Origin: Deinococcales bacterium
GTDB taxonomy: Bacteria > Deinococcota > Deinococci > Deinococcales > JAAFIG01
Reading direction: 5' to 3'
DNA length: 37,407 bases
NCBI GenBank assembly: GCA_043730305.1
Contig: JAYTKL010000400.1
Location: 1 to 37,407 of the forward strand
The translations under genes and the position numbers were made by a program. How positions within the stretch are numbered: position 1 is the first letter of the stretch; every line of letters starts with the position of its first letter. Below the pieces are notes generated by a model that made no database searches, was not told the origin of the DNA, and was given only the letters and a program-made list of their open reading frames with translations. Positions 7,177 through 24,081 of this stretch are shown here, piece after piece.

Positions 7177-7330
7177 AATGTGTCATTTTACGAGTAATTC
7201 TGGGTCAGGTGGACCAAATCTCGTCCAGTTCATAACAGCTTATCCAACTACATTATCCGATACCTGCCCTAGGTGTATAAATCCAAAAACGTTTTTCGGC
7301 ACGATATTCGACACCCTCTCAAGTAAGCCA

Positions 7331-10297
7331 TCATGCTATGAGCATTGTCTCGACAAGTGATGTCAACGTAGTGGTCTTAGCCGTTGGAAGTTCCATAAGC
7401 TTGAGGCTCGAGAGAACACGACGAGCCGCAGCTTGACCGAACACCCCACTCGCAGGGTTGGTCAACGCGAAATTCGCGGCTTTGGCTGCAAGCGCATGAT
7501 TGCCTGCCTCGAGTAAAACCTCTGCTTGATACGGCACAGCCCAAGACAACACCAATCCAATGTGATTCGAGTGCGCCAAACGCATCCCCTCGAGCAAAGC
7601 ACTCGCTGTTTTCTGGTCATTGCGTGCCAAGCCTAGCCGCCCAAGCACCACCAAGAGAAACGATTGAACGAAATGCTGACCCGTCCGTTCCGTGATTGGC
7701 AACGCCGCACGACACAAGCCCTCAGCCCGCTCGAGCCGAACCGAATCACCTTCTTGCAAGCCGATCTCGAGCAAGGACAGTGCCTCAATCGCTTGCATGA
7801 TTGCCTCAAGAATTCCAAGAACGGCTGGATTCCTGGCAATGATCGCATAACCCGCCTCGAGTGTCGCCAGCGCCTCCGCATGGGTTCCAAACAGCATTTG
7901 AGCGCAACCGAAATACGTGTACAACCAAACCGCATCGATTCCGTCGGGCAGGCGACCAGTCTGATACAGCTTGAGCGCTTCTTCAAAGGCTTGGTTCGCT
8001 CGAGTCTGGTCTGCCACAACCGCCGCCGCCAACCCAAGGGTGCTGAGGACTCGAGCCACCCGCACGTCATCGCCGATTTCTCGAGCCAGCACGAGCGCCT
8101 GTTCAGCAATGGTGGGGCTTTGAGCAAAATGACCCGCACGGTAATAGGCTTGCGCGAGCGCGTCAAAGGCTCGGCTGGCTTGCAAAGGCTCGGAAGAGCG
8201 TTGAGCAATTTTTACGGCTGTTTCGCAGTGCCTCACACCAGCCGCAAAGTCACCAACGAAGAGGTGACTCCAACCGTAACTGGTGGCAAACGAAACTCGA
8301 GCCTCGAGCGCCGAAGGGTCGTTCTCTGGCAAGGCAGTCAAAACTTCGGCAAACAACCGCGTGCCTGCTTCAAGTCTGCCACTCATGCCCATATGCCACA
8401 GCAACGGTTCGGCAAGACCCACCAGATCGCCGTACTGCCGTTTTTGTAGCAGGTGACGCAACATTGCCAAGACGTTTGCATCCTCACCGAGCGTGAAAAC
8501 AATCAATTCTGCACTGGCTGCCCCGCTCGAGGCTCGGTTCACTGCCGCTATGCGCGAGGCAAAATACGCGGCGTGGACATCGTGAGTCTCGAGATCAAGC
8601 GTTTCAGTCTCGGTCAGTTTGGCAGCGACGTAACTGTGAAGCAACGCATGAAATGTGAAGCGCCCAGGTGAAACGATTTGCACCAACGCCGCATTGCAAA
8701 GACGTTCAATGATGGTCGCGGTAGCCCCAGCCACCTCGAGTGCGGCGACAGCCGTAAAGCCACCCTGAAACACCGAGAGTTTGGCAAGCGTGTCTTGTTC
8801 AGTGGTTGTCAGCAGCCGCCAGGAATACTCGAACGCCACCCGCATCCCTTTGTGCCTCGCTCGAGCATCACGAAAGTGGGTTTCCACTCCAAGCGCGTCA
8901 CGCTCGAGGTTCACTCGCAATTCGGCAAGCGGCTCGAACCGCAGTCGTGCGGCGGCAAGCTCGAGCGCCAGTGGGTAGCCGCTCAGAAGCGTGCAGACTC
9001 GAATGGCGTCCGCAATCATCTCGGGTAGAAACGCAAAACCGTGTTGCGCCCGTCCAGCGCGATCCTCGAATAACTGCAACGCCTCGCTTTCCCGCATGAT
9101 CTCGAGAGTGGCGTCCAAAGCTGGAATCTCGAGTCCGTCCAAGGTCACAACGGTTTCGCTGCGCAGGTTGAGTCGTTGTCGTGAAGTCACCAGCAAGACC
9201 AGGTTTGGACAGCTTGAGAGTAGGCGCGGCAAGTGTTCTGCCGCCTCGAGTAAATGCTCGAAGTTGTCCAACACCAGCAAGACCTCGAGTGACCCAATGG
9301 TTTTGGCGAGGGTTTCATACGGCTCAGGCGAACCATCCACCACCAACCCGAACGGTTCCGCCATCCGACCCGCGACAGCAGCGCGATGCTCGAGGGTGTC
9401 GAGTGGAACGAAAAACACGCCATTGGCGAAATAAGCCCTGTCATACAAGCGACGGGCAACCTCAAGGGCGAGACGGGTTTTGCCAACCCCACCAGGTCCG
9501 TGCAGCGTGACCAGGCGAGAATCGTGACGATCAAGCAGCCTTGTTAAATCGCGCAAGTGCTGTTCACGACCAATAAAACCGGTGGCGAAGGCTGGAAGGT
9601 TTGTGGGAATGTTTTTGGGGTCTTGAAGTGATTCACCAAGGGCTGCGGCTTCACGCCTCAACCGTTCGAGACTCGAGCCACCATGAGGTGAAAGCAGGGT
9701 GTTCAAGCGTCGCAAATCGCGTCCTTCGGGTGTGGCAGCCACCCGCAAGGCTGCCTGTGCAAGCTCGAGAGACTGTTGTGAATCGCCTTTTGAAAACTTG
9801 CGTTCGCTGAATTCGAGGTGGGCGGATCGTGCCAAACTTGCCAGGCGTTCGCGGGTGTGAAAGACCCATTCCTCGAGTTCCTTGCCAAGACCACTACCAA
9901 GACCCGCCGCAAAATCTCCTGAGTACAATCCAATGGCTTCCTCGAGATTGCCAGTTTTACAATGCTTGGAAAACAAAACCGCATCGCAATCAATACAGGA
10001 TTCGATCTTGCCATCCTGCTCGAGGATCAGTTCGCCCGCACTGCGAAGCCGTCGCAAGGTGGTGGAAAGCGCATCGGCACTTTCGTTGCTTTCAGGGAAA
10101 AACAATGCGGCAAGATGACGACGTGTTTGTGAACCCTCGAGACACAAGTAGCCAAGCAGCAAGAGAGGCTTGGGGCGCTGAAATACCGCGCCCTCTAAAC
10201 GCACTCCGCCGAACGTCTCGAGTTGCATGATGGTGTTCAGTATACTTTGGGGTGCGAAACTGTGCTTGGCAGAATATTCTCGAGTTCGCTCTGTCAC
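7331..10297 (-). CDS. SARP/BTAD-headed STAND ATPase + TPR regulator (AfsR-like architecture)
   Basis: The N-terminal winged helix is LETFGGVRLEG..FQRPKPLLLLGYLCLEG..RRHLAALFF. BTAD-like strings are YSGDFAAGL..ELEEWVFHTRERL. The P-loop is LHGPGGVGKTRLALEVA and Walker B is LLVLDNFEHL, followed by a long TPR-like tail. By comparison with the paralogue at 19378, the likelier start is the ATG at 10228 (MQLETFGG), not the GTG at 10297. Confidence 0.85.
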   Translation of the reverse strand: MTERTREYSAKHSFAPQSILNTIMQLETFGGVRLEGAVFQRPKPLLLLGYLCLEGSQTRRHLAALFFPESNESADALSTTLRRLRSAGELILEQDGKIESCIDCDAVLFSKHCKTGNLEEAIGLYSGDFAAGLGSGLGKELEEWVFHTRERLASLARSAHLEFSERKFSKGDSQQSLELAQAALRVAATPEGRDLRRLNTLLSPHGGSSLERLRREAAALGESLQDPKNIPTNLPAFATGFIGREQHLRDLTRLLDRHDSRLVTLHGPGGVGKTRLALEVARRLYDRAYFANGVFFVPLDTLEHRAAVAGRMAEPFGLVVDGSPEPYETLAKTIGSLEVLLVLDNFEHLLEAAEHLPRLLSSCPNLVLLVTSRQRLNLRSETVVTLDGLEIPALDATLEIMRESEALQLFEDRAGRAQHGFAFLPEMIADAIRVCTLLSGYPLALELAAARLRFEPLAELRVNLERDALGVETHFRDARARHKGMRVAFEYSWRLLTTTEQDTLAKLSVFQGGFTAVAALEVAGATATIIERLCNAALVQIVSPGRFTFHALLHSYVAAKLTETETLDLETHDVHAAYFASRIAAVNRASSGAASAELIVFTLGEDANVLAMLRHLLQKRQYGDLVGLAEPLLWHMGMSGRLEAGTRLFAEVLTALPENDPSALEARVSFATSYGWSHLFVGDFAAGVRHCETAVKIAQRSSEPLQASRAFDALAQAYYRAGHFAQSPTIAEQALVLAREIGDDVRVARVLSTLGLAAAVVADQTRANQAFEEALKLYQTGRLPDGIDAVWLYTYFGCAQMLFGTHAEALATLEAGYAIIARNPAVLGILEAIMQAIEALSLLEIGLQEGDSVRLERAEGLCRAALPITERTGQHFVQSFLLVVLGRLGLARNDQKTASALLEGMRLAHSNHIGLVLSWAVPYQAEVLLEAGNHALAAKAANFALTNPASGVFGQAAARRVLSSLKLMELPTAKTTTLTSLVETMLIA

Positions 10298-10446
10298 GCT
10301 TGCCCGCGTCCAAGGGTGTATAGAGTTCCTCTTGACGTGCCTGAACTAGATATGCCGTTTAGGGGCACCCTTTTCTGAAAAACACCGTCCAGCAAAGAGC
10401 CAAAAAACGAAACTTTTCAATGTCTAGGATGAGGCATGAATAGGGA

Positions 10447-11592
10447 TCATAGTTCCCTGAATCGCACCCAAGCCGTTGAGGGTACACGTCCTCCAGCAAG
10501 CCCACCACCGCACGATAAGCTTGTGAAGAGGATTATCTTGTGACCCTTCTCAAGCAACAATTTCCCGACCCTGTCAGGATAAGTTGGTAGAGATGCCTTC
10601 GTCCACCCTCCAGTGACCGATGGCTTGTATGAAAAATCAGCGTCGAGATTTTTAGACTCATTCGGGGTGTTGCAGCCATTCGGCAAAGGCTTCATAGGCT
10701 TGGAGTAAATGTAAACTTCTGTTTGCTCTCCCGACGTCCACATCGCATCGATGCTGTATGTACCAGTTCGAGGAATGTCAATTCCTAAAGTAAAGTTGTC
10801 AGACCCCCTATTTGGGCTATCCGAGACAATCAATTCTTGTTTCGCATCATAATGAACGCCATAACCGAGAGTAATTGCCGAAGCTTGGAATGCCTTCTCA
10901 AATTTAACTGGAGGCAATGAATAATCTACAAGCATTGAATCAGGGATAGCCCCCAAAAAATTCCCAGATATCCGCACTGCTGATGCACCCACATCTCTCT
11001 TCACCTCGTATACTTTTGATCCAGAACCAGAAAAGGTCTCGTGAAGCGATTTTTTAGAATTTACTGTTCCGCCTACCAGCGCGATATCAACTACACCCCT
11101 AATAGTACCGATTGGAAACACCCTCGAGACGACCAATGTAAAGCCGTTGTTCGTAACATTTCGAGCTGAAAGAAGAAAGCCAGCCGCCGATGTAACTTTT
11201 GTCACACAATTTTGCCAAGCATTCACCTGAGCATCTGTCAAACCAGTTTTGAGATAGGATTGCGCCTCCGCGTCGCTCTTGGAGAAATTTTCTTGACTAA
11301 GACGTTGACGCACTTTTTTTGCAAAATCTTCTTTGCTTTCCGATTGGTTGTAATCGACTCCATACCCCGCATAACTTCCGCCTGCTCCCAACGAATTAGA
11401 TCGACCACTTTTATTTTCATCATATTCATAAGCGGCATAAAGATACATATAAGCCTGAGAGCGCCTGATATCAGAAGTTATTTGTTCAACAGTTGGTTTT
11501 AAAACTTCTCCGCAATTAATCGTATTTTGCGCAGATGCCACCTTTAAACCAAAGAGGACTATCACCAATGCGACGGCAGCTAAATATTTCAT
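10447..11592 (-). CDS. Secreted protein of unknown function
   Basis: 381 aa. The signal peptide is MKYLAAVALVIVLFGLKVASAQ. GAGGGG precedes the ATG. The C-terminal ~130 aa look like a beta-sandwich. I recognise no catalytic motif. It lies in the AT-rich island. Confidence 0.7.
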   Translation of the reverse strand: MKYLAAVALVIVLFGLKVASAQNTINCGEVLKPTVEQITSDIRRSQAYMYLYAAYEYDENKSGRSNSLGAGGSYAGYGVDYNQSESKEDFAKKVRQRLSQENFSKSDAEAQSYLKTGLTDAQVNAWQNCVTKVTSAAGFLLSARNVTNNGFTLVVSRVFPIGTIRGVVDIALVGGTVNSKKSLHETFSGSGSKVYEVKRDVGASAVRISGNFLGAIPDSMLVDYSLPPVKFEKAFQASAITLGYGVHYDAKQELIVSDSPNRGSDNFTLGIDIPRTGTYSIDAMWTSGEQTEVYIYSKPMKPLPNGCNTPNESKNLDADFSYKPSVTGGWTKASLPTYPDRVGKLLLEKGHKIILFTSLSCGGGLAGGRVPSTAWVRFREL

Positions 11593-11755
11593 GCTTTCCC
11601 CTCATTTAGTGCTTTCGTGTTTGGGCTTCTGGATTCATAAACACGCGAATTATTGCTGAATCCGAAGCCAACTTAAAAGTAGGTGATCTTGAACTGATTT
11701 TACGTTTGGTGTAAGAAGTCTGGTGAGCTAACCGTACCAAACTCGTCAGACATTT

Positions 11756-11953
11756 GCGGGTGTGAAAACCCAATTCTCGAGTTCCTTGCCAAGACCATCA
11801 CCAAAACCCGCCACAAAATCTCCCAAGTACAACGCATGGCTTCTATTCGCTTTCGCCGTCGAAGCGCACGTATATCTCATGGATGTCTATCTCTGCCCCA
11901 GATGCAAGTACGCCAAGTACAAGGGGATCGGTGAGTGTCAAAAATTGCAACCG
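11756..11953 (-). pseudogene. Composite scar: the 3' end of a paralogue of 14924..15460 fused to a fragment of a SARP-regulator gene
   Basis: 11843..11953 translates to ...LASGAEIDIHEIYVRFDGESE*, compared with ...INIHEMYVRFDGKCE* at the end of 14924..15460. 11756..11842 matches DNA at 9836..9920 of the intact SARP gene and 14836..14923. The breakpoint ...ATGGCTTC|TATTCGC... is the same as at 14924. Confidence 0.65.
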
Positions 11954-13753
11954 CTAGCGTTTTACACAATACCTAAGTGCAATCCAAGGGGGCATGCTTT
12001 CAAAGGGCTTACCGTCTCCTGTAGACCCTGTCATGTGGCTTCCAACACCTGGACTGTTTGTCCCCCAGCTCTGATTTGGTGTTTGCAAGTAACCTGCACC
12101 CGCTCCTGCTCCACCACTCAGCGTTTCGCTGTGCGAATGTGGCGGAAGATTTGGAACTGTCAGCACATGTCGTTCCTCTCCCCCAGATTGCATCAGACCT
12201 CGAGGGGTCAACCCAGCACCAGCACCGACACCGACAATCACTCGACCTGCCGCTTCGGTAAACTCATTCCAACCGTCTGGACATTCGCCATCAAGCCTGA
12301 AGGCAATTACCGACCTCGACATAGATTTTTCCGCAGTCTCTAGGGTCGCTAGGCGTTGACCAAAACTGGGTGAACCAGTATTACCTTGTTGATTGAATTG
12401 CGATAACTGCAAGGTTTTGGTTTTCGCAAAGTAATCCTTGGGTGAAAGCACCGTTTTAGCAGTTATAAACGTCGCACTGCTTTCAAAAGAACTTCGATTG
12501 ATCTGTCGAACTCGGATTTTTTTCGCAACGAAACGTTGTCCTTCCCACGAAAGGTCAATATCGTGTTTTGCATAAGTCTCGATAATTGCCCCTCGAGAAA
12601 CTTTGCTGCCAAATCCAAATGTAGCAACCACTCCCTCAACGGGTACGCCAATGTTGAGACTATCATCGCTCGTAGTCGTGTAATTTGAGGTTCCCTTGAT
12701 TTCGCTGAAAACCTTGTTTGTTTGCTTGGTAATGACATCGGGTGATAGGTCGTCTTTATTGTAAGTTGCTGCCAGCTTGTTTTTGTCATATTCGGCAGAT
12801 TGAGTGTCAAATTTGTTGTTGGCATACGATTTGATAAAGTCTTCAGCAACCGAATCCGTGAACGTTGCTGGGTCTTCGATGACATAATCAGCGCTTATTG
12901 CCGTTTGGATGCTTTCAGATAACGAACGGATGTCATCTCGATGCACATAGACATTTCCGCTCGCATCAGGCTTGATGCCTGATCCAGAGCCAAAAAGTTG
13001 AACATAGAAATTGGTGTTCTTGATATTTTTCAGTGAGATTCGGGTACTGTTGGTCAGGGCTGTATGACCTTTGAACGTGTAATTGTATTCAACGTTTTTT
13101 GTAATAGCAAAACTGGATGCGTTGGTCGCAATTTGCCGACTTGGACATGTAATTACAATGTCATAAGTTTCACTAGTTAATCCATTGACTTGGTAAAATT
13201 GAGCAGAAACACCACTTAAACTTGCGTCTTTTCCCAACCAACACTTTGGGTACGCGACAGCCAAATCCGGAATGCGAAACACCAACTGCCCAAGGTCGAG
13301 CGAGAATAGTTGTACTTCTTCCAGAGTATTAAATTTTCCACTCAAGACGTTGGCAATTTTCTTCACAGCCAAGTCTCGTGCGGCGTTTGGTAGGGTGACG
13401 ACTGTTAAAGAAGCGCTCCAAAGATCGGAATCATCTTTGAGATTTGGATTAAAAGGATGGATGTCAATTTCGGGTTTACCGTCGGCTTTGGTACGAGGAA
13501 TGAACATTGGTTCAAATCCGAATTTCCACTCACTTACTGGTTTTGAATTGTTTTCAGAGTCTGCCCAAATGGTACTAGTGATCCCCGAATAGGAAACAGC
13601 AGTCAAAAACTTAAAGGTGACTGCACCGATTTGAAGATCACCGTTATTAGACCCCACGCTCCCTTGTTGAGCACGTGAGCTAGATTGAATGAGCAATATA
13701 CCTATTGCAACAATACTCAACATTACGATTGTGCTCATTGTTATTTTTTTCAT
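11954..13753 (-). CDS. Secreted protein: ~480-aa unknown N-terminal region fused to a C-terminal phage tail-collar domain
   Basis: The ATG at 13753 is preceded by GGAGG. The signal peptide is MKKITMSTIVMLSIVAIGILLIQSSSRAQ. The C-terminus ECPDGWNEF..AGRVIVGVG...GGEERHVLTVPNLPPHSHS...GKPFESMPPWIALRYCV matches the tail-collar (MdpB-like) pattern. Confidence 0.75.
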   Translation of the reverse strand: MKKITMSTIVMLSIVAIGILLIQSSSRAQQGSVGSNNGDLQIGAVTFKFLTAVSYSGITSTIWADSENNSKPVSEWKFGFEPMFIPRTKADGKPEIDIHPFNPNLKDDSDLWSASLTVVTLPNAARDLAVKKIANVLSGKFNTLEEVQLFSLDLGQLVFRIPDLAVAYPKCWLGKDASLSGVSAQFYQVNGLTSETYDIVITCPSRQIATNASSFAITKNVEYNYTFKGHTALTNSTRISLKNIKNTNFYVQLFGSGSGIKPDASGNVYVHRDDIRSLSESIQTAISADYVIEDPATFTDSVAEDFIKSYANNKFDTQSAEYDKNKLAATYNKDDLSPDVITKQTNKVFSEIKGTSNYTTTSDDSLNIGVPVEGVVATFGFGSKVSRGAIIETYAKHDIDLSWEGQRFVAKKIRVRQINRSSFESSATFITAKTVLSPKDYFAKTKTLQLSQFNQQGNTGSPSFGQRLATLETAEKSMSRSVIAFRLDGECPDGWNEFTEAAGRVIVGVGAGAGLTPRGLMQSGGEERHVLTVPNLPPHSHSETLSGGAGAGAGYLQTPNQSWGTNSPGVGSHMTGSTGDGKPFESMPPWIALRYCVKR

Positions 13754-13850
13754 ATTGCCTCCATTTAACTTGGAAAGAAAGGTCAATTAAATATTTCGTC
13801 AACGTAGGTTCAAATCAAACAGTTATTGTAGAGTTTTCTGCTGATCTTTT

Positions 13851-14381
13851 TTAGTTGTTTGATCTTGGTCCGTTTGCTTGAATGCCTTGTGTTGTGGGAT
13901 CGGCATCAAAGTTTGGAGTGCCGTATTTGCGTACTGCACTAAAGTAGATGTGAGCTTTTCCATTGCAAAGAGTTTGTAATACACCACTGGTCTGCTCCTT
14001 ACAGAGCTGAAAGAGGTCGTTTTCAAAACGCTGATCCACTCCCAAGCGCGACATCATGCGAAAATCTACGGTGCCCGTCCTGATCGAGTCGTAAACAATC
14101 CCGCCTGAATATCCTGCATCGTGCATGTCACATGCGCGGGTTACTGTTACGATGATGACTTGCTTGGAGGTTGGATTTTCGATCCGAAACGAATCAGGAA
14201 CCAAGCTAGAAAAACCCGCTCCTCCACAGCCATTCGAGTATGCTGTCGCCTTAAATGGGTTGCTCGTGGTGTTGCCCTGGAGGATATCGGCAAATACCAA
14301 ACTGTTAATCAACAAATAACCCATGGTTAACGAGGCAGCAAGCGATAAGCGCAACATCTGGCGAAACACTATGACCATCAT
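13851..14381 (-). CDS. Secreted phospholipase-A2-like protein (putative)
   Basis: 176 aa with GGAGG before the ATG and an N-terminal signal/anchor. YSNGCGGAG (aa 48-56) resembles the PLA2 Ca-binding loop Y.G.G. ACDMHDAGY (aa 83-91) resembles the catalytic C..HD..Y motif. There are four Cys in the predicted mature part. Confidence 0.45.
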   Translation of the reverse strand: MMVIVFRQMLRLSLAASLTMGYLLINSLVFADILQGNTTSNPFKATAYSNGCGGAGFSSLVPDSFRIENPTSKQVIIVTVTRACDMHDAGYSGGIVYDSIRTGTVDFRMMSRLGVDQRFENDLFQLCKEQTSGVLQTLCNGKAHIYFSAVRKYGTPNFDADPTTQGIQANGPRSNN

Positions 14382-14689
14382 TCAAATCCTCCTTTCTTAA
14401 TATTTTCATACTTGAGCTTTTTGTTTCTCGAGACCCGTTTTCATAGTTTCCCGTCATCTTGCTCATTGAACATCCACCAAACGTCGAAGTAAAATTCTCG
14501 GGTTTTTCTACTCAAAGCGGGAATAATCGTCATTCACTGGCTGATCTGGCTGATAGAACGAATTGCTTTCGCAAGGATGTTGGCAGCAAACCGAATATCT
14601 TCATTGGTGTGGTTTGGAGTGACCTGCAAACGAAAACGTGCTGCCCACGCCGACAAGCCAGAAACTCGATGTTATTGAGAATCAAACCA

Positions 14690-14923
14690 CTCTCGAAGCA
14701 CTGCCTGTACGCTTGCCGCGCAACAGGTTCCTCGCCGACCAGGACAAGCACGAGAGACCGTTATGAATCGCCTTTTGAAAGGGCGCGTTCGCTGATTTTG
14801 AGGTGGGCTGATCGTGCCAAACTTGCCAGGCGTTCGCGGGTGTGAAAAACCCATTCCTCAAGTTTCTTGCCAAGACCACCACAACACCCGTCGCAAAATC
14901 TCTCGAATACAACGCATTGGCTT
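14690..14923 (-). pseudogene. Remnant of a SARP/BTAD regulator paralogue (codons about 117-195 only, premature stop)
   Basis: It translates to ...LGKKLEEWVFHTRERLASLARSAHLKISERALSKGDS*, compared with ...GKELEEWVFHTRERLASLARSAHLEFSERKFSKGDSQQ in 7331..10297. TAA replaces CAA. It has no N-terminus or ATPase part and abuts the stop codon of 14924..15460. Confidence 0.7.
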
Positions 14924-15460
14924 CTATTCGCATTTGCCGTCGAAGCGCACGTACATCTCATGAATGTTGATCGTTGCCCCAGTTGCATCAATGCTAGCTG
15001 GGGTTGATTGATCAGGGAAGATGTTAAGGTAGAGAACGGACGTGCCTCCCTGGGCATAGTATAAGGTAAGGCTCTTTATTGCCTTCAGTAATTGCTTCGT
15101 CTGAGGAGAGAGAGTGGATGGAGTTGGTGACCACGTGGCGCTCAGGATCGCGTTGTTGCCGATGACCTGTTGAGGGATGGGCACAGAGGCGTATTCCTGT
15201 GAGAAATCCAGAGTACCTTGGAATGTAAAGTTGAAGTCCTTCGAGCAGATGCTTGGTGTTGTTGTTGCTTGAAGAGCAGTGACTTTCCCTTCCAGTGCGG
15301 TTACGGCAGTACCAAGGGCACTAAAATTCTGATTCACTGCGTTTGAACTGATGACGGTTCCACTTATAAATGTGTTTGGGATTGTTGCAGCCAAAGCAAC
15401 CAAACCAAAGGAGCCGAGGGCAAAACCAAGAACGAGGTTTTTGAGGGTTTTTGTGTTCAT
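14924..15460 (-). CDS. Secreted fibre-like protein of unknown function
   Basis: 178 aa. AAGGAA precedes the ATG. The signal peptide is MNTKTLKNLVLGFALGSFGLVALA. It is followed by IPNTFISGTVISSNAVNQNFSALGTAVTALEGKVTALQ, an N-terminal motif plus short coiled coil seen in tail-fibre/collar-type proteins. Confidence 0.65.
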   Translation of the reverse strand: MNTKTLKNLVLGFALGSFGLVALAATIPNTFISGTVISSNAVNQNFSALGTAVTALEGKVTALQATTTPSICSKDFNFTFQGTLDFSQEYASVPIPQQVIGNNAILSATWSPTPSTLSPQTKQLLKAIKSLTLYYAQGGTSVLYLNIFPDQSTPASIDATGATINIHEMYVRFDGKCE

Positions 15461-15512
15461 CTGAGCATTCCTTTCGAGCAGCTTGAAACCGAGAGGCGGC
15501 GGATTGATCGTT

Positions 15513-15662
15513 TCACGATCCCCAAACAGCGCTGTCCCATTGACTGGTGTTGGTGTCCCAAGTACTGGTCGAAGATGGCGGCGGTGGCGGTGGAGGAGGC
15601 GGCAATATACAAGAAACCAAAAGGGTGACCAACACCAAAACCATAACCAAATGACGTTTCAT
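15513..15662 (-). CDS. Small lipoprotein with a poly-proline tract (49 aa), hypothetical
   Basis: Absent from the ORF track. ATG at 15662 is preceded by GGAGG. My translation is MKRHLVMVLVLVTLLVSCILPPPPPPPPPSSTSTWDTNTSQWDSAVWGS, with the lipobox LVSC. It sits between the RCC1 gene and 14924..15460. Confidence 0.4.
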   Translation of the reverse strand: MKRHLVMVLVLVTLLVSCILPPPPPPPPPSSTSTWDTNTSQWDSAVWGS

Positions 15663-15685
15663 ACTGCCTCCTGAACCACCTGGTC

Positions 15686-18600
15686 TTACTGAAATCTAAA
15701 GTTCGCCGCGTGCACCGAACCATCGCTCAAGGTCACCACCATCTGACGGCAGGTGTCTTTCCAGCCTCTTAATGCGAACACCTCGAGCGCGTACACACCG
15801 CTCTTGAACGTCAGGCTTTCAACCCAGACTTCATTCGTGCGTCCCTGAACAACCAGGGTAGTGCAATTGATCTGAACCGAATTGACGATCCTGACCACGC
15901 GACGACCAAAATCCCCACCCAGACTAAACTTCAAGAAGAACGTGTTGCCAACCCGAACACTGTTCAACGCGGGTAGGTTCAGCACTGGTGAGAAGAAACC
16001 CGTGAAGTTGAATCCTGTCATGCCCGTGAACGAGACGCTCACCGTTGCGGGACTGGTCAAGTTCAGGGTTTGCGGGTTGGTTGTTCCGGTCAACGCACCA
16101 GAAAAGCCGCTGAAGGTAAAACCTGAATTCGGGGTGGCGGTGATCAAGATCGGTCCTGCATTGAAGAAACCTGAAGTGGGCGAGATACTGCCACCAGCAC
16201 CAGCGGAGGTCGTCAACTGGTATTGCGTTTGAAAGTTCGCCGTGATCGTAACTGGACTCGAGGCTGCCGTCACACTGTGTGAAATCGCACCGCCATCGGA
16301 CCAATTGAGCAGCACATACCGTGTGCCTGCGACCAGACTCTGCGGCGAGGTCGTGGAGACGCTGTGGGCGCTACCGGGGACCCATTGAAAGGTTCGTGCG
16401 GTGTTGTAACTGGTGCCGTCCACCGTGAAACTCAAGCCCGAGGGTGAGGTGGCAATCGTGGTGGCGACGATGGTTTGGGCAAAGCTCGCACTCACGCTCA
16501 GCGGACTCGTCAAATTCAAGGTTTGTGGGTTGGCCGTGCCAGTCAAAGCACCAGCAAAACCGCTGAAGCTGAAGCCCGAATTTGGACTTGCCGTCACGAC
16601 AACCGGACCAGCGTTGTAAAACGCTGTGGCTGGCGTGATGCCTCCACCAGCGCCAGCCGAGGTCGTCAAGAGAAACTGCGTTTGAAAGCTCGCCGTGATC
16701 GTGGTTGGACTGGATGGTGCAGTGACGGTGTGCGATATGGCCCCACCGTCTGACCAGGCATTGAACACGTACTGCGTTCCGGCGACAAGGCTTTGCGGCG
16801 AGGTTGTCGAAACGCTATGCGAACTCCCTGGCAGCCAATCAAAGGTTTGGGTGCTGGTGTAGGTGGTTCCGTCTACGATGAAGTTGAGCCCGGCTGTTAC
16901 CGTGTTGATCGTGGTTGCCACGGTGAGTTGATTGAAGGTCGCGTTGACCGATGCAGGACCGATCAAATTCAAGATTTGTGGACTGGTCGTCCCAGTCAGC
17001 GCCCCAGAAAAACCATTGAACGCGTAACCAGCATTGGCGGTCGCGCTGAGCACCACTGGACCCTCATCGTAAAAGCCTGTTGACGGTGAGACACTTCCAC
17101 CCGCACCAGCCGAAGTCGTCAACTGATGCTGGGTTTTGAAGCCCGCCGTGATCGTGGCGGCGCTTGATGGGACGGTCACACTGTGCGAGATTGCGCCGCT
17201 GTCAGACCAGGAATTCAGGACGTATTGCGTGCCTGCGACCAGGCTTTGCGGCGAAGTTGTTGCAATCGTGTGTGTGCTGCCAGACAACCACTGAAAGGTG
17301 TGGCTGCTGGTGTAGGTTGTGCCATCGGCCGTGAAGCTGAGCCCAGCCGGTGAAGTGTTCACGGTGATCGGAACCTCGAGATCATCATTCACAATCGTGC
17401 CGAGACCTTGAGCATCGCCCACCGTCGCACCGGTCACGTTGCTGAGGTTGACCTTAAAGGTCTCGTCAGGCTCGACCAGCGTATCGCCGTTGACCTGCAC
17501 GGTAAATGTGGCGCTCGAGCTTCCGGCCGGAATGGTTTGCGCGGTCAGTGCTTGCGTTGCGAAATCGCTCGTGCTATTCGCAGTGTCATCTTCGGTGGCA
17601 ATGTCGAAGGTCACACCGCCAGCTCCGGCTGGAGTGCTGAGGTTGACGGTGAAGGTAAACGAGGTAGTACCAGTGTCGCCTTCGTTTTGAGAGACATCGG
17701 TGATGCCCATGACCACAACGAGGAGGTTCAACCCGCTCACATCCACTGGAGTGTTGCTGTTGGTATTGCTGCCATCCCCTAGCTCTCCACCGGCATCGTT
17801 TCGTCCCCAGCATTTGACCCCACCCATATTGGTCAAAGCGCAACTGTGGTACCCACCTGCAGTAATGGCAGTGACCCCGCTTGTCAACCTGCTCACATCC
17901 ACTGGGGTGTTGCTGTCGGTGGTGCCGCCATCTCCTAGCTGGCCAAAGAAGTTTGAACCCCAGCACTTGACCCCACCAACGCTGGTCAGGGCACACGTTT
18001 GCTCATTGTTAGCACTGATGTCCGTGACCCCGCTTGTTAAACCGTTTACATCCACTGGAGTGTTGCTGTCAGTGGTGCTGCCATTCCCTAGCTGGCCCTC
18101 GAGGTTGCGACCCCAGCATTTGACCCCACCCGTGTTCGTCAGAGCGCAAGTGTGGTAGTAACCAGCGCTGATGGCCGTGACCCCGCTGGTCAACCCGTTC
18201 ACATCCACAGGAGTGTTGCTATTGGTGGTGCCACCATCCCCCAACTGTCCAGAGAAGTTGGCACCCCAACATTTAACCCCACCAACACTGGTCAAGGCAC
18301 AAGTGTGAGAATAACCAGCGCTGATGGCAATCACTTCACTGGTCAATCCGCCCGCATCCACAGGAGTGTTGCTGTTGGTGGTGCTGGCATCCCCTAGCTG
18401 GCCAAAAGGGTTCGAACCCCAACATTTGACCCCACCTGTGCTGGTCACAGCGCAAGTATGGTCAACACCGGCGCTGATAGCAGTAACCCCGCTTGTTAAT
18501 CCGATTACATCCAAAGGAGTGTTGCTGTTGGTGGTGCTGCCATTCCCTAGCTGGCCATTGAGGTTGCGACCCCAGCATTTGACCGCACCTGCGCTGGTCA

Positions 18601-18937
18601 GAGCGCAAGTGTGGTTAGCACCAGCGCTGATGGCCGTGACCCCGCTTATCAAACCGCTTACATCTACCGGGACGTTGCTGCTGTAAGTATTGCTGCCGTC
18701 TCCTAACTCACCATTGCCGTTGAAGCCCCAGCATTTGACTCCACCGGCACTTGTCAAGGCACAAGAATGTATATTACCAGCGCTGATGGCTGGCTGGGTG
18801 CCCAGCGTCATCAGTTTGGGCTGGTTCAAGGTCTGGTTGGGCTTATCGGCTTGGACGGCTTGGGGTGTTGGAAGCTGGTTGCAGGCGCTCGCAATAACCG
18901 CGAGCATACAAACCAACAGGTAGTGGATTGCTTTCAT
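15686..18937 (-). CDS. Large lipoprotein: 7x RCC1 repeats + Calx-beta + 3x ~151-aa tandem repeats + C-terminal PxKF-like domain
   Basis: The ATG at 18937 is preceded by AAGGAG. The lipobox is [19 protein letters not shown]. Seven copies of H(T/S)CALTS.GGVKCWG.N..GQLG.G.T..S.TPVDV give RCC1 blades. [17 protein letters not shown]...[13 protein letters not shown]...[12 protein letters not shown]...IVNDD is Calx-beta. The end [34 protein letters not shown] resembles the PxKF domain. Confidence 0.85.
16020..17375 (-). repeat. Three tandem ~453-bp coding repeats (~151-aa units)
   Basis: The unit V.TT..T...GL.F..DGT.Y......F.W..GS.H...[13 protein letters not shown]...[28 protein letters not shown]...P...F...GP......N.G..F.GF.GALTG...PQ.LNL..P.SV...F occurs three times. 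Coordinates are approximate. Confidence 0.8.
17720..18790 (-). repeat. Seven tandem ~150-bp RCC1-blade coding repeats
   Basis: The ~50-aa unit ...[41 protein letters not shown] is repeated 7 times in the protein. Coordinates are approximate. Confidence 0.8.
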
Positions 18938-19305
18938 CCGTGTCTCCTTTGCGTTTCGAACCTGAAAGTTGTCCGGCTGGTCAGACGGAATAAGTTCATG
19001 TTTCCCCCAAGAATTTACGGTTGACACGCGGTCAACCTCGAGTGGTTCCTTCCAAACGAAGTAATGGAAGTCTTTGAACGTGTTTGAACAGGCGTTTTGT
19101 CAATTGATGATTCCCTTCACGTGTTTTCTCTTCGTGAACACCCGAGGATTTAGCCATGCAAGAGAAGTTTTTTAGAATCGTCCGTTAGTCTGACAAACGA
19201 ACATCCACTAAACGTCTATGCAAAAATGTGAGAGTTTTTCCACTCAAATAACCTGAGTGTCTTCTGCTCAATCTGTTCCATGATTATCATTTTGTAGCAC
19301 TCACG

Positions 19306-19338
19306 ATCCGACCAAAATCCGACCAGTATCCGACCAGC
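19306..19338 (+). promoter_or_regulatory. Three tandem 11-bp direct repeats (ATCCGACCAAA / ATCCGACCAGT / ATCCGACCAGC): candidate activator (SARP-type) binding site
   Basis: The 9-nt core ATCCGACCA is perfect and repeats with exact 11-bp periodicity. The array ends 26 nt upstream of the -10-like TAAACT at 19365. SARPs are known to bind direct repeats with 11-nt phasing next to the -35 position. Confidence 0.45.
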
Positions 19339-19377: not shown

Positions 19378-22338
19378 ATGAGCTTGCACCTCGAGACACT
19401 TGGAGGGATTCGACTGGTTGGCGTTGAATTTCAACGACCGAAACCCTTGTTGTTGCTCGCATACCTGAGTCTCGAGGGTCCAAAACCACGGCGCGACCTC
19501 ACGACCTTGTTCTTCTCGGACAGCGATCAACAGGCGGATGCCCTGTCCACCACCTTGCGTCGTTTGCGGGCGGTGAAGGTGATTGACGAGTCTGGCGGAC
19601 GGGTCGCTGCAACCGTGAACTGTGATGCGAACCTCTTGCGGGAACATTTCGAGCAAGCTGATCTCGAGCGTGTCCTCGAGTTGTACTCGGGAGTGTTCGC
19701 CGCAGGGTTGAGCGGTCATCTTGGCACTGACCTCGAGGAGTGGGTCTTCCAAACCCGCGAGCGTTTAGCTGGTCTGGTTCGTTTGGCGCACCTCGAGCTG
19801 GGTGAACGTGCCCTCGAGCAAGGCGACACGCGACACGCGTTGAAACACGCCGAGGCTGCGACGCATGTGCCTGGTGCGAAAGAACCCGCTCAGACAAAAA
19901 CAAAACGCTTAAAGCAGCTGCTCGAGCATTTGGGGAACAGTTCAGCAAACCTTGCTGGAACACCCAGAACGTCCAAGCTCCCCTTGTCGTTGACCTCGTT
20001 CGTCGGACGAAATCATGAAACGAAGCAGGTGCTCGAGATTCTGGCTGGCACGGCGGGCAGACTCATCACGATTCATGGTTCTGGTGGGGTTGGGAAATCC
20101 CGTTTCGCGCTCGAGGTTGCACGCTTGGCATTCGAGCATGATTCAAGCTGGCAGGGTGTTCACCTGGTTCAACTCGAGTTTCTCGAGAAACCCGATGGCT
20201 TGGCGGCTGCCATTGCACTTGCCTTGGATTTACCACCACCGGCTGGCAGTGACCCGTTTGCGGCACTCGCTTCAAGCATGGGTCACTCGAGACGGATGCT
20301 GGTGCTAGACAACTTCGAGCACCTGATTGCCGCCGCCTCAGCTTTGCCTCGCTTGTTGTCTGCCTGTTCGGGCTTGGCTTTGATCATTACTTCCCGCGAG
20401 CGTCTGAACTTGCGTGCCGAATGGGTGCTCGACCTTGAAGGCTTACCAATCGCACCGCACAACGCGACCCTCGAGGAGCAACGCGTTTCCCCTGCCGTGT
20501 TACTGTTCATGGATCGCGCCCGTCATGCCCGTGTCAACCTCGAGTTTGATGCAGACCATTTGCAAGACGCTGTTCACATCTGCGAACTCACAGACGGTTA
20601 TCCGCTCGCGCTCGAGTTGGCTGCCGCATCACTTCGAATGGTGCCGCTCGCCGAACTTGCCCGCACCTTGAAGAGCACAGCGCTTGACCTCGAATCACCG
20701 CACCGTGATAACCCTGACCGTCATCGTAGTGTCCGTACCGTCTTCGAGCATTCATGGCAGCGACTGAGTGCCACCGAACAACACGGACTGGCTTGCCTCG
20801 CGTCGTTTCAAGGTGGCTTCACTCGAGAAGCAGCACTCGCCGTCGCCAGTGTGGACGGTCATGCACTCGAGGGTTTCGCGGATCGCTCGTTGGTGCAAGT
20901 TTCGCCGACTGGACGGTTTGGGTTTCATCCCTTGCTGCACAGTTTCTTGCGCTCAAAACTATCAGCAGACACAAAACTCGAGGAACACGCGCTCGAGCTT
21001 CACGCTTTGTACTTTGGCAACATCCTTCAATCGCTGAACGTGCAAGCCCACGGTGCGGCGGATGCTGGCGTGATGGATTACATGGCAAGCGAGGAGGGAA
21101 ACCTGGTCGCGCTACTTCGGTATAGCCTGCAACACCAGCAGTTTGATACTTTGGCGAATCTGGCAGAACCTTTCTTGTGGTACATGCCACTCCGAGGACG
21201 TTTTGCCGAGGCGTTGCAACTCAATGTTGAGATTCTCGAGGGACTACCTGAAAACGACCCAGCAGCGAACGGCGCACTTGCCGCGTTCCTGACAAATGCC
21301 TCGTGGTTATACCGACTGGTTGGCGATCTCGAGCAAGCTGTCGCATTGGCACGCCAAGCGCTGCAATTGGTAGAAACGAGCGGCAATACCTTGCAACACA
21401 TGCGCGTTCTTGATGGACTGGGGCAAGCACTTTTTCTTTCAGGTTCGTTTGACGCGGGCATTACCAAAGTTGGCAAAGCGCTCGAGATTGCCAGAAGTTA
21501 TGGTGATGACACCCGTTTGTTACGGGCTTTGAGCAATCTTGGTGCTGGGTACACCACATCGGGCAACATGCAAAAAGCCACGCAGTTCTACACCGAAGCT
21601 CGAGCTTTATACGACACTGGACGTGTTCTGAAAGGCATGGATGTGGTTTGGTTGCTCTCGAATATCGGTTACCAAAACCTACTGATTGCCGAATTTGATG
21701 AGGTGATTGCCATCTGCGACGAAGCGCTGGGTGTGGCACGTGAGGCGCGATGTGATGGACAGATGACGCTCTTATGGGCGTTGACTGCTTTTGCTCGACT
21801 TGAACGTTATCTCGAAGGTCACGATCCAACTGATCTCGAGATTGCCAATTCAACTTGCGTTCACGCTGTCCCTGCGGCAAAACAGAGCGGTGAGAAGTTC
21901 TCAGGGGTGATGCTGCTTACCGTCGAAAGTCGCATCATGCTTGAGCATGGGAATACGTCACACGCTACCGAACTATTGCTCGAGGGGTTACAGATCGCAC
22001 TTGAAAGTGGCAACCGCATTGCGTTTTTGTGGGCGTTGCCATACTACATCGAGGCATTGATCGCCTTGAGCAAGCTTGAAAAAGCGGCTGAACTTACAGG
22101 GTTTATTGCCGCCCAACCATCAAACGGCGTTTGGATGAAAGCTCGAGTGGCACGATTGGAAGTGACTCTCGAAACACGATTCGACGATCAGAAATTGTTT
22201 GAAGCTGGGAAATCTCGAGGTTCACTGCTGAGTTCTGAAAGTACGAAAGAGCGCTTGCTTGCCATGCTCGAGATTTCGGATAACCACGCGCCTTTTTTGA
22301 ATCCTGAGATTGGTATCAAAAAACCTGATTCGTGGTGA
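19378..22338 (+). CDS. SARP/BTAD-headed STAND ATPase + TPR regulator (paralogue of 7331..10297)
   Basis: 986 aa. The head is MSLHLETLGGIRLVGVEFQRPKPLLLLAYLSLEG..RRDLTTLFF. BTAD-like strings are YSGVFAAGL..DLEEWVFQTRERL. The P-loop is IHGSGGVGKSRFALEVA and Walker B is MLVLDNFEHL, followed by a long TPR-like C-terminal half. Confidence 0.85.
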   Translation: MSLHLETLGGIRLVGVEFQRPKPLLLLAYLSLEGPKPRRDLTTLFFSDSDQQADALSTTLRRLRAVKVIDESGGRVAATVNCDANLLREHFEQADLERVLELYSGVFAAGLSGHLGTDLEEWVFQTRERLAGLVRLAHLELGERALEQGDTRHALKHAEAATHVPGAKEPAQTKTKRLKQLLEHLGNSSANLAGTPRTSKLPLSLTSFVGRNHETKQVLEILAGTAGRLITIHGSGGVGKSRFALEVARLAFEHDSSWQGVHLVQLEFLEKPDGLAAAIALALDLPPPAGSDPFAALASSMGHSRRMLVLDNFEHLIAAASALPRLLSACSGLALIITSRERLNLRAEWVLDLEGLPIAPHNATLEEQRVSPAVLLFMDRARHARVNLEFDADHLQDAVHICELTDGYPLALELAAASLRMVPLAELARTLKSTALDLESPHRDNPDRHRSVRTVFEHSWQRLSATEQHGLACLASFQGGFTREAALAVASVDGHALEGFADRSLVQVSPTGRFGFHPLLHSFLRSKLSADTKLEEHALELHALYFGNILQSLNVQAHGAADAGVMDYMASEEGNLVALLRYSLQHQQFDTLANLAEPFLWYMPLRGRFAEALQLNVEILEGLPENDPAANGALAAFLTNASWLYRLVGDLEQAVALARQALQLVETSGNTLQHMRVLDGLGQALFLSGSFDAGITKVGKALEIARSYGDDTRLLRALSNLGAGYTTSGNMQKATQFYTEARALYDTGRVLKGMDVVWLLSNIGYQNLLIAEFDEVIAICDEALGVAREARCDGQMTLLWALTAFARLERYLEGHDPTDLEIANSTCVHAVPAAKQSGEKFSGVMLLTVESRIMLEHGNTSHATELLLEGLQIALESGNRIAFLWALPYYIEALIALSKLEKAAELTGFIAAQPSNGVWMKARVARLEVTLETRFDDQKLFEAGKSRGSLLSSESTKERLLAMLEISDNHAPFLNPEIGIKKPDSW

Positions 22339-22541: not shown

Positions 22542-23558
22542 ATGAACTCCGAAGCCCGAAACACTTTTAACACCTTCCAAGCCCTTCTTGACCATAAAAC
22601 GCACCTTCGGGCATGGTCGCTCATGCCAACCCGTGCAACCAAGAAAGCCTTCAAAAGCGCGGTTCATCACCTCCTCAAAGCCAACGGCAACCCCAGACCT
22701 CAACACTGCAAAACCACCAGTCCCAGCACCATCAGTCGATTCCATAACAAAACCCGTTGGGATACCCAAGTCTTAACTCGAGCCATGCAAGCCGTTGTTG
22801 TGAACATCATCATCAAATCGTACAAGCACACTCGAGGAGCGGGTCAAGTCATCAAAGCCCGATTGGATTTAACCACCCTCGAGAAAACAGGGAACTTCCC
22901 AAACCTTCCAATCACTGGCTTCAACGCTGTGAAAGGCTTGCACATCATTGTTTTGTACATCAGTGTAGGCAACCAGAGTTACCCGTTTCATTACGCGATC
23001 TGGAAAGGCAAAGGCAAAGCGACCTTGACGCAATTAGCCCTGGCTTTACTCAAAAAACTCGAGCGATCTTTACCTGAGCGTTTTAAGATTCGTGCTTTCA
23101 CGGAACTGAGCCGTCGTGGTGCGATGGTCTTCCTCAACAAGTGTAGCGTGCCCGTTTGGGTGAGTTGGTTTAAGCTCGAGCTTCACGGTGGGGAATTTGA
23201 ATGGCGTTACGTGGTCAGCACTAAAGTTGGTGATTGGTTGACGATTGTCACTTGGGGACGAGCGCGTTGGGCGATAGAGGGCTTTTTTAAGGTTATGAAA
23301 AGCAGGTTTGGTTTAGATCAGTTTGGGCAACGAACATTGCTTGGCACGATTCGGTTCTTACTCCTGTCTTTTCTAGCGTTTATGTTGACGAGTATCTCGA
23401 GGGTGGATCGAAGTATTTTACCCGACTGGCAAGCGTTGGCGCTCGAGTTGCGAAGATCGTTGTTCGCGCGGTTGGAGTGGGCTGTTGTGGAGCGGGAAAT
23501 GTTTGAACTTGAACCTTATTTGCAGGCGACTATGCAAGATTATGCGTCTGGTACATAA
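22542..23558 (+). CDS. IS4-superfamily DDE transposase, probably degenerate (internal deletion)
   Basis: 338 aa. RLDLTTLEKTG fits the first-Asp region and RARWAIEGFFKVMKSRFGLDQFGQRTL fits the conserved Y..R..IE..F/K block. I could not recognise the second-Asp region, and the spacing between blocks is short. IS ends were not identified. Confidence 0.6.
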   Translation: MNSEARNTFNTFQALLDHKTHLRAWSLMPTRATKKAFKSAVHHLLKANGNPRPQHCKTTSPSTISRFHNKTRWDTQVLTRAMQAVVVNIIIKSYKHTRGAGQVIKARLDLTTLEKTGNFPNLPITGFNAVKGLHIIVLYISVGNQSYPFHYAIWKGKGKATLTQLALALLKKLERSLPERFKIRAFTELSRRGAMVFLNKCSVPVWVSWFKLELHGGEFEWRYVVSTKVGDWLTIVTWGRARWAIEGFFKVMKSRFGLDQFGQRTLLGTIRFLLLSFLAFMLTSISRVDRSILPDWQALALELRRSLFARLEWAVVEREMFELEPYLQATMQDYASGT

Positions 23559-23625
23559 CTGCAAGAAATGAGGTATCTCGAGGTACAAAAAAATCAGCAA
23601 TTGCTTGTTCTCCTCTCATCCCCCA

Positions 23626-23649
23626 CCCTTCTCTCCCAGGAGAGAAGGG
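23626..23649 (+). terminator. Hairpin CCCTTCTCTCC-CA-GGAGAGAAGGG (11-bp stem) followed by a weak T-rich stretch
   Basis: The 11-bp inverted repeat is perfect and lies 68 nt after the transposase stop. It is followed by AGTCTTTATTG. It may be a terminator or part of the IS end. Confidence 0.35.
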
Positions 23650-23732
23650 AGTCTTTATTGAATGTTCGAGGGACGAAAATTTGTGTTTTGAACCTTTTCA
23701 ACCCTTAAAACTCGAGATTAAAACAGCTTTGA

Positions 23733-23745: not shown

Positions 23746-24081
23746 GTGCAATCAACCAAAACATTTCGTGAACGGGTGCTGGATGTGATCGCTAACATTC
23801 CAGAGGGGCGCGTCATGACTTACGGTCAACTTGCCGAAGTGGCAGGAATGCCGCGTCACGCTCGAGCCGTCGGTGACATCTTGCATGGGCTGTCGCTCGA
23901 GACTGACCTACCGTGGTGGAGGGTGATTAACTCGAGCGGCAAGATCAGCACCTACAAGGTTGGGACGGGCGAATTGCAACGGGGGTTGCTCGAGCGCGAA
24001 GCGGTGCAGTTTGATTCAAATGGCAAGCTGAAACTCGAGTTGTTCAGGTGGCAGATTGAAGTGATTGAGACCGAGCACTGA
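23746..24081 (+). CDS. Alkyltransferase-like (ATL) protein: MGMT/Ogt DNA-binding domain lacking the acceptor cysteine
   Basis: 111 aa. IPEGRVMTYGQLAEVAG.PRHARAVG is the MGMT helix-turn-helix. The active-site pentapeptide is PWWRV rather than PCHRV, as in ATL proteins (PWHRV). Confidence 0.75.
   Translation: MQSTKTFRERVLDVIANIPEGRVMTYGQLAEVAGMPRHARAVGDILHGLSLETDLPWWRVINSSGKISTYKVGTGELQRGLLEREAVQFDSNGKLKLELFRWQIEVIETEH

Follow-up and report, generated by a model that had tools for sequence, protein, structure and literature searches.

The genome of an uncultured bacterium of the order Deinococcales contains, on a contig of 37,407 nucleotides that was analysed as a whole and is referred to here as 'the window', an islet of exported-protein genes between positions 10298 and 15685. 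The islet carries four genes, which we call A to D, and possibly a short fifth, all on the minus strand; regulator 1, a gene for an RCC1-repeat lipoprotein ('the RCC1 gene') and regulator 2 lie around it. We conclude that the genes of the islet, which encode exported proteins, were probably acquired separately and form a mosaic; the flexible region around them is specific to this lineage and spans 32 kb or more. It is an ordinary kind of genomic islet, and has no recognisable toxin or secretion system. An earlier note on this DNA had proposed that the islet was an acquired or reshuffled module of secreted effectors. 'Acquired or reshuffled' is borne out by the CTCGAG and codon bias of genes A to D, by the failure to find A, the N-terminal domain of B, and C in relatives, and by scars that stem from duplication of a regulator gene. 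'Module', in the sense of a single acquisition, does not survive: composition and homologue distribution differ from gene to gene, and the RCC1 gene and both regulators are compositionally native.

Composition of the islet

The host is represented by a metagenome-assembled genome (MAG) of 4.27 Mb in 648 contigs, with 51.3% GC, of which the window is contig C400. Its ribosomal protein L2 scores 470–476 bits against those of Deinococcus radiodurans and Thermus thermophilus and 366 against that of Bacillus, in keeping with a place in the Deinococcota. CTCGAG is the most abundant of all hexamers in this genome (27,690 copies, 6.5/kb), and the window contains 202 copies where shuffled sequences predict 7.7. 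All five sampled genera of the host family have 3.6–7.4 copies/kb; families of the order that are Thermus-like or Deinococcus-like show little or no excess (0–1.6/kb). Within coding regions, 60% of CTCGAG sites lie in the CTC-GAG (Leu-Glu) frame, so that motif density depends on protein composition and has to be corrected for it; genome-wide, 73% of Leu-Glu dipeptides are encoded as CTC-GAG. The number of sites expected in each gene was calculated by scoring every peptide context able to hold the word by the genome-wide usage of that context.

The islet is approximately 78% coding. Its GC content, 46.0%, falls at the 3.5th percentile of genome windows of 5.4 kb, and its five CTCGAG sites (at 11123, 11776, 12199, 12592 and 14427) are the lowest count of all, matched by no other among 1,873 such windows. 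The earlier note had given this number, and approximately 30 for the adjoining regulator gene; exact counting gives 5 and 30. It was right, too, that GC is lower here, the mean per 60-nt line being 45.8% (range 27–65%) versus 55–57% (range 43–68%) in the flanking genes, but the figures that it quoted, 30–42% versus 60–68%, were extremes picked from these ranges. The scarcity of CTCGAG is likewise real, but its true extent, 10300–19300, goes beyond the bounds that had been claimed. This is the longest CTCGAG-poor run of the assembly, which has 20 such runs in all, amounting to 2.2% of its DNA.

Most of the contrast between 5 and 30 sites is due to differing Leu-Glu content. The two regulators contain 27 and 33 Leu-Glu dipeptides; A, B, C and D contain 1, 2, 0 and 1, and the RCC1 protein contains 3. 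Once expectation is adjusted, regulator 1 (27.4 sites expected, 30 observed) and regulator 2 (30.5 expected, 29 observed) are native-like. So is the RCC1 gene (6.2 expected, 5 observed), which is CTCGAG-poor because it has few Leu-Glu dipeptides, all three of them encoded as CTCGAG. Genes A to D are different. Together they have 3 sites where 9.6 are expected (P=0.0014), a threefold shortfall that persists after the peptide correction, and just 0.4–1.6% of genes with a similar expectation score as poorly. The non-coding DNA of the islet (approximately 1.2 kb) is poor also, with 2 sites against the 8 or so that are typical at the genome-wide density of approximately 7/kb. Export by itself is not the cause of the shortfall, since the observed-to-expected ratio is 1.08 in 337 native genes whose N-termini resemble signal peptides. 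Codon usage fits that of the genome at the 1.5th percentile for A, 5.6th for B, 9.4th for C and 5.5th for D, compared with the 33rd for the RCC1 gene. Genes A to D, then, are compositionally foreign, as acquired genes are expected to be, although the raw contrast overstates the case; the RCC1 gene is not.

Other features recorded in the earlier note proved accurate. By eye, a signal peptide or a lipobox can be made out in each of the six genes (A to D, the short fifth and RCC1), and each has a Shine–Dalgarno-like motif, as do just 20–26% of crude gene starts genome-wide. Some native-looking genes were said to appear leaderless, and three STAND regulators do look so, with a −10-like box near the start codon. 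Scans for promoters and terminators returned fewer matches than shuffled sequences.

Genes and their products

Gene A (10447..11592, minus strand; GC at third codon positions, GC3, 0.40) encodes a protein of 381 amino acids (aa) with a signal peptide, and belongs to an orphan family. Only four homologues, 41–52% identical, were found among 5.8 billion proteins, giving a family of five known members that share four invariant Cys residues. The homologues come from metagenome contigs of 56–62% GC in which CTCGAG is not enriched; they are GC-poor relative to their own surroundings, and adjoin a Qat defence system or a PIN toxin–antitoxin pair. No match was found in five congeners and 35 further relatives, 40 genomes in all. 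Structure prediction from the five sequences (pLDDT 57, pTM 0.38) gave a low-confidence model in which the N-terminal part seems helical and beta-sandwich parts come after it. The Foldseek matches to CBM6, Cry/Vip toxin domains and VesC, at TM scores of approximately 0.2, were set aside as a mere hint of beta-sandwich modules.

Gene B (11954..13753, minus strand) starts at an ATG preceded by a GGAGG box and encodes 599 aa: a signal peptide, an uncharacterised domain of approximately 430 aa with the motif VHRDDLR, and a collar-like C-terminal domain of approximately 100 aa. The family of the N-terminal domain comprises approximately 91 representative clusters. A Pfam Collar domain (PF07484) is present at the C-terminus in 9 of 32 family members; gene B itself has no PF07484 match at E≤0.01 and falls short of the family threshold. 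Its C-terminus scores 19.3 bits against Gp10_C, under the cut-off of 27, and matches PHROG tail families at 1e-8 to 2e-6. Relatives of B were found in Acidobacteriota and Nostocales in a locus search with a six-member alignment. The first 490 or so residues have no counterpart in the five congeners or the 35 further relatives; in these, just the collar part matches, to small tandem collar proteins. No match to the Protein Data Bank (PDB) was obtained by sequence, and a profile of the 32-member alignment, run against the 5.8 billion proteins, returned B alone. Structure prediction from 10 sequences reached pLDDT 48, and Foldseek gave nothing below E 0.3. A possible relationship between the A family and the neighbour of the Pyrinomonadaceae homologue of B was looked for with hhalign, which showed none.

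In Nostoc, Anabaena and Phormidium, the B-type N-terminal domain lacks a signal peptide, and its fusion partner is a GTPase. In these cyanobacterial loci (at about 5960–8950) it is always followed by another gene, which encodes a GTPase with DUF697, the two genes forming a conserved unit.

Gene C (13851..14381, minus strand) encodes 176 aa, exported as judged by eye, and is the only one of the islet proteins with a family assignment: it is a divergent, prokaryotic phospholipase A2 (PLA2)-like protein with a C-x-x-H-D-x-G-Y centre. It scores 32.4 bits against PF09056 (cut-off 29.4) over profile positions 44–110 of 110. Its ACDMHDAGY aligns with AC(H/A)RHDFGY of PDB entries 8k1w and 1faz, and the C-terminal Cys residues align as well. 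The five congeners gave no match.

Gene D (14924..15460, minus strand) encodes 178 aa: a signal peptide and coiled-coil N-terminus (65 aa), then a unique C-terminal head. The N-terminal part belongs to a family that is multi-copy, often tandem, chromosomal and order-wide. The last 76 nt of the gene are 96% identical to a gene fragment beside an insertion sequence (IS) in a genome of another genus, g2 (G010). Core DNA of that genome is just 63–68% identical to the host's, a sign that a D-type gene has been exchanged recently. The 76-nt tail was considered as a possible IS end and rejected; the 20-nt inverted repeats of the G010 IS begin just beyond it, and so the tail there is a gene fragment truncated by the IS.

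The possible fifth gene (15513..15662, minus strand) would encode a poly-Pro lipoprotein of 49 aa, with an LVSC lipobox and an AGGAGG box. It is not called in public gene sets, and is best regarded as a candidate whose reality is uncertain. NCBIfam and PADLOC gave nothing usable for genes A to D.

Collar-like and fibre-like proteins bring to mind a prophage or tailocin remnant, in which B and D would be decayed tail genes. The Gp10_C and PHROG matches of B, though weak, are of this kind, and the N-terminus of D, a coiled coil, is fibre-like. But the PHROG matches are confined to the C-terminal 100 aa of B, and there are no genes for capsid, portal, sheath, baseplate, terminase or integrase; proteins of the B family have signal peptides and are encoded by lone genes in bacterial chromosomes, and those of the D family by chromosomal tandem arrays. 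We consider this origin extremely improbable. The products of a mosaic of the kind we favour would most probably act independently of one another outside the cell, C as a phospholipase A2, B perhaps as a surface-binding protein with a collar-type tip, D as a putative fibre, a coiled coil whose head is variable, and A as a protein with helical and beta-sandwich parts. They may plausibly take part in interactions with other cells; a role as toxins or in predation is conjecture.

Gene fragments and rearrangement

The two pseudogene scars that had been reported, at 11722–11906 and 14745–14987, are both present, and both derive from regulator 1 (7331..10297, minus strand, likely start 10228). Scar 1 is a composite: 11722–11843 is 82% identical to 9817–9940 of regulator 1, and 11844–11906 matches the last 20 codons of D. 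Scar 2 (14745..14924) is 87% identical to 9760–9940 of regulator 1 (codons ~120–180) and abuts the stop codon of D itself. The two scars thus share one chimeric junction, between the fragment of regulator 1 and the tail of gene D. The junction copies are 83% identical and 3,081 bp apart, and bracket B and C; as direct repeats of 185 bp they flank these two genes alone. Because the same junction occurs at two places, the chimera was formed once and then duplicated. The patch would accordingly have arisen through illegitimate joins and the duplication of parts: a piece of the regulator gene was first joined to gene D at its 3′ end, and the junction was duplicated later. This could have happened by insertion, through recombination, of a circle that carried the junction, or by duplication followed by replacement.

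One could go further, and regard B and C as a mobile, two-gene cassette for membrane attack, able to move by way of the 185-bp repeats. Fusion of the N-terminal domain of B to dynamin-like GTPases in cyanobacteria would fit a membrane-binding role; its collar tip would be a putative receptor binder, and C the PLA2. We hold this to be very improbable. If it were true, the cassette would be a new class of contact-dependent or secreted antibacterial weapon in the Deinococcota.

Synteny and the flexible region

The earlier note had suggested that synteny with related genomes be compared, and the comparison shows that the region is not syntenic with congeners. The window is collinear with three of them from 28.4 to 37.4 kb, at 85% DNA identity, and core genes of host and congeners are 89–92% identical in protein and 85% in DNA. 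The first conserved gene is a small open reading frame (ORF) of 111 aa (23746..24081, plus strand; 93% aa identity). Left of 23746, where synteny stops, no orthologues occur in congeners, and the islet therefore lies inside a lineage-specific flexible region. In congeners G003 and G004 the 111-aa ORF sits directly between a LysR gene and an RtcB-like gene, adjacent to both; A, the N-terminal domain of B, and C are not found in any of the five congeners. In the host, the RtcB-like gene is represented by its final 87 codons, at the end of another contig (C326:2-262). At its left end the window continues, in a public 73-kb contig, through an IS630-like element into contig C77. Transposase genes lie at 22542–23558 and at the left end of the window, and the flexible region spans no less than 32 kb. 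In public assemblies from ENA and Logan the sequence of the window recurs without a mismatch over 21.8 kb and 5.0 kb; these assemblies may share the MAG's sample, and the agreement of two assemblers across the islet argues against mis-assembly.

We propose that the junction which joins the RtcB-like gene and the small ORF in congeners has been filled, in this lineage, with IS elements, STAND/TPR regulators and genes for surface and secreted proteins. The RCC1 gene and both regulators carry the CTCGAG signature of the family, and so are long-term residents. Genes A to D, and a LuxR-type STAND gene described below, would have come from outside the CTCGAG-rich family, too recently for amelioration.

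Could the islet genes simply be native? They might be accessory genes that evolve fast and are weakly expressed, and amino-acid composition and relaxed selection would then account for their low GC and scarcity of CTCGAG. Leu-Glu content does explain most of the raw CTCGAG contrast, and all of that of the RCC1 gene; D has an N-terminal module from a family native to the order, and small collar-domain proteins are common in relatives. But the shortfall in A to D outlasts the correction, native exported proteins show none, relatives of A and B occur solely in unrelated phyla or lineages, and congeners so similar in their core DNA have yielded neither A and C nor the N-terminal domain of B. This makes a native origin quite improbable.

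Several points weigh against the mosaic that we prefer. The counts are small, A to D offering just 19 peptide 'opportunities' for CTCGAG, and GC3 of C and D is unremarkable (22nd percentile). The congener genomes are MAGs, 79–92% complete, so that absence of a gene from them means 'not found' and no more. The copies of the scar sequences have diverged by 13–18%, and some of the events are therefore not very recent. The window contains no integrase, tRNA or clean island boundary that we could find. The left end of the flexible region is unassembled, and the site may have been rearranged instead of having received an insertion.

Other features of the flexible region and its edges are as follows. 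The transposase gene at its right edge (22542..23558, plus strand) encodes a DDE transposase of 338 aa that, compared with a relative in G010, apparently lacks part of the catalytic region. Two dispersed repeats lie near it: one of approximately 40 nt (22582-22622) with 97–100% identical copies on more than 10 contigs, and one of approximately 100 nt (23588-23698) with 76–95% identical copies on more than 20. Between the 111-aa ORF and LysR the host has an inserted gene, for a 1231-aa lipoprotein (24395-28090, plus strand); in G003 and G004 the ORF and LysR adjoin each other, with 29 bp between them in G004. The CTCGAG content of the inserted gene is near normal (9 observed, 10.5 expected). 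The contig with the end of the RtcB-like gene begins with the second-longest CTCGAG-poor stretch (C326:1-7300). On C77, beside the IS630-like element, is a gene for a PGAP1-like hydrolase of 800 aa (L062 12735-15137) with 42.9% GC and 2 CTCGAG sites, another foreign-looking exoenzyme gene in the flexible region.

RCC1 lipoprotein, flanking regulators and the question of control

The RCC1 gene (15686..18937, minus strand) encodes a lipoprotein that combines RCC1 repeats with Calx-beta and three InlB-B-like repeats, and is at most 47% identical to congener proteins, over part of its length. Regulator 2 (19378..22338, plus strand) is divergent from it and is 41% identical to regulator 1. Both regulators are STAND NTPase–TPR proteins that had been labelled 'SARP'. 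The label is weak: Pfam sees the STAND NTPase and TPR parts only, with no Trans_reg_C; BTAD scores 16.7 bits in regulator 1 (cut-off 22.1) and is not matched in regulator 2; and the N-termini are SARP-like by eye alone. Neither regulator is more than 38% identical to any congener protein, and similar paralogues are scattered, 5–15 per genome. Attempts to locate a syntenic site through SARP orthologues failed, as the best congener matches were paralogues of 33–38% identity, and two short DNA matches in G003 and G004 led nowhere.

Control of the islet by these regulators, as had been suggested, is not supported. Three exact ATCCGACCA boxes, in an 11-bp phase and unique in the window, are present at 19306-19336, between the RCC1 gene and regulator 2. 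This motif, the one tested, does not occur upstream of genes A to D.

Absence of the boxes bears on the idea of a functional secreted-effector module, in which RCC1, D, C, B and A would be co-expressed for attack or adhesion and switched on by the SARP-like STAND sensors. The idea draws on the shared orientation of every gene between 811 and 19027, on the signal peptides or lipoboxes and Shine–Dalgarno boxes common to all six genes, on PLA2 as a plausible membrane-damaging enzyme, and on the phased boxes themselves. But no copy of these boxes lies upstream of genes A to D, the intergenic gaps, 65–540 bp long, contain dead gene fragments, and the window has no secretion-system genes. The genes differ in composition and in the whereabouts of their homologues; those of A and B never adjoin each other elsewhere, or PLA2-like genes, and have unrelated neighbours. 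The putative sensors lack close orthologues, and their congener paralogues are scattered. A module of this kind is unlikely.

Two further genes lie to the left of regulator 1. One (4651-7176, minus strand), for a LuxR-type STAND/TPR regulator, is the most CTCGAG-under-saturated gene of the assembly given its peptide: of 18 Leu-Glu dipeptides 3 are encoded as CTCGAG, and 5 sites are observed where 18.6 are expected (z −5.3; GC3 0.39). It looks more clearly foreign than any gene of the islet. The other (2684-4282, minus strand) encodes a 532-aa TPR protein that matches, with an E value of 1e-57, the PADLOC model PDLC01171, which is named 'TPR repeats containing protein' and belongs to candidate defence systems.

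Significance and comparison with known systems

The analysis marks out a flexible region with turnover of STAND regulators and of proteins that are secreted or at the surface. It also brings to light two uncharacterised families that merit structure determination: the A family, and the ~430-aa domain of B, which occurs fused to a collar or to a GTPase.

Two of the proteins resemble known classes in part. The C-terminal 100 or so residues of B resemble the collar domain of bacterial phage-tail-collar proteins (PF07484, MdpB-like); B differs from these in scoring under the Pfam Collar threshold and in possessing the large N-terminal domain that is GTPase-fused in Nostocales. Gene C shares the catalytic His-Asp, the flanking Cys residues and export with the prokaryotic and fungal secreted PLA2s of PF09056 (e.g. 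Streptomyces violaceoruber PLA2, PDB 1faz/1lwb). Unlike the solved enzymes, it matches the C-terminal 60% of the profile alone, at low identity (E 8e-4 to 0.1), and its N-terminal half, calcium loop included, cannot be aligned to them.

The setting is that of the flexible genomic regions termed plasticity zones. Here, too, the conserved flanks are adjacent in congeners, and what lies between them is specific to the species: IS elements, paralogous regulators, fragments of pseudogenes and genes for surface proteins. It departs from such zones in that we found neither an integrase nor a tRNA target nor conjugation genes, and the left boundary is unassembled.

The closest parallel is with the genomic islands of Synechococcus elongatus PCC 7942, which were recognised by scarcity of the palindrome HIP1 together with unusual codon usage (Delaye et al. 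2011, PMC3025956). In those islands, as in this one, a hyper-abundant palindrome is missing, codons are atypical, and orphan genes occur that have no counterpart in relatives. The logic is the same: the motif forms in situ, and so its scarcity marks recent arrival. The word here is CTCGAG rather than GCGATCGC, the phylum is Deinococcota, and a Leu-Glu correction is needed. Without it, alpha-helical regulators seem 'native' and beta-rich exoproteins 'foreign' by default. HIP1 scarcity can have other causes, the same authors warn (PMC3025956), and the RCC1 gene is a case in which scarcity of the motif has a cause other than recent arrival. After the Leu-Glu correction, and only then, CTCGAG excess can mark residence time in this family of Deinococcota as HIP1 does in cyanobacteria.

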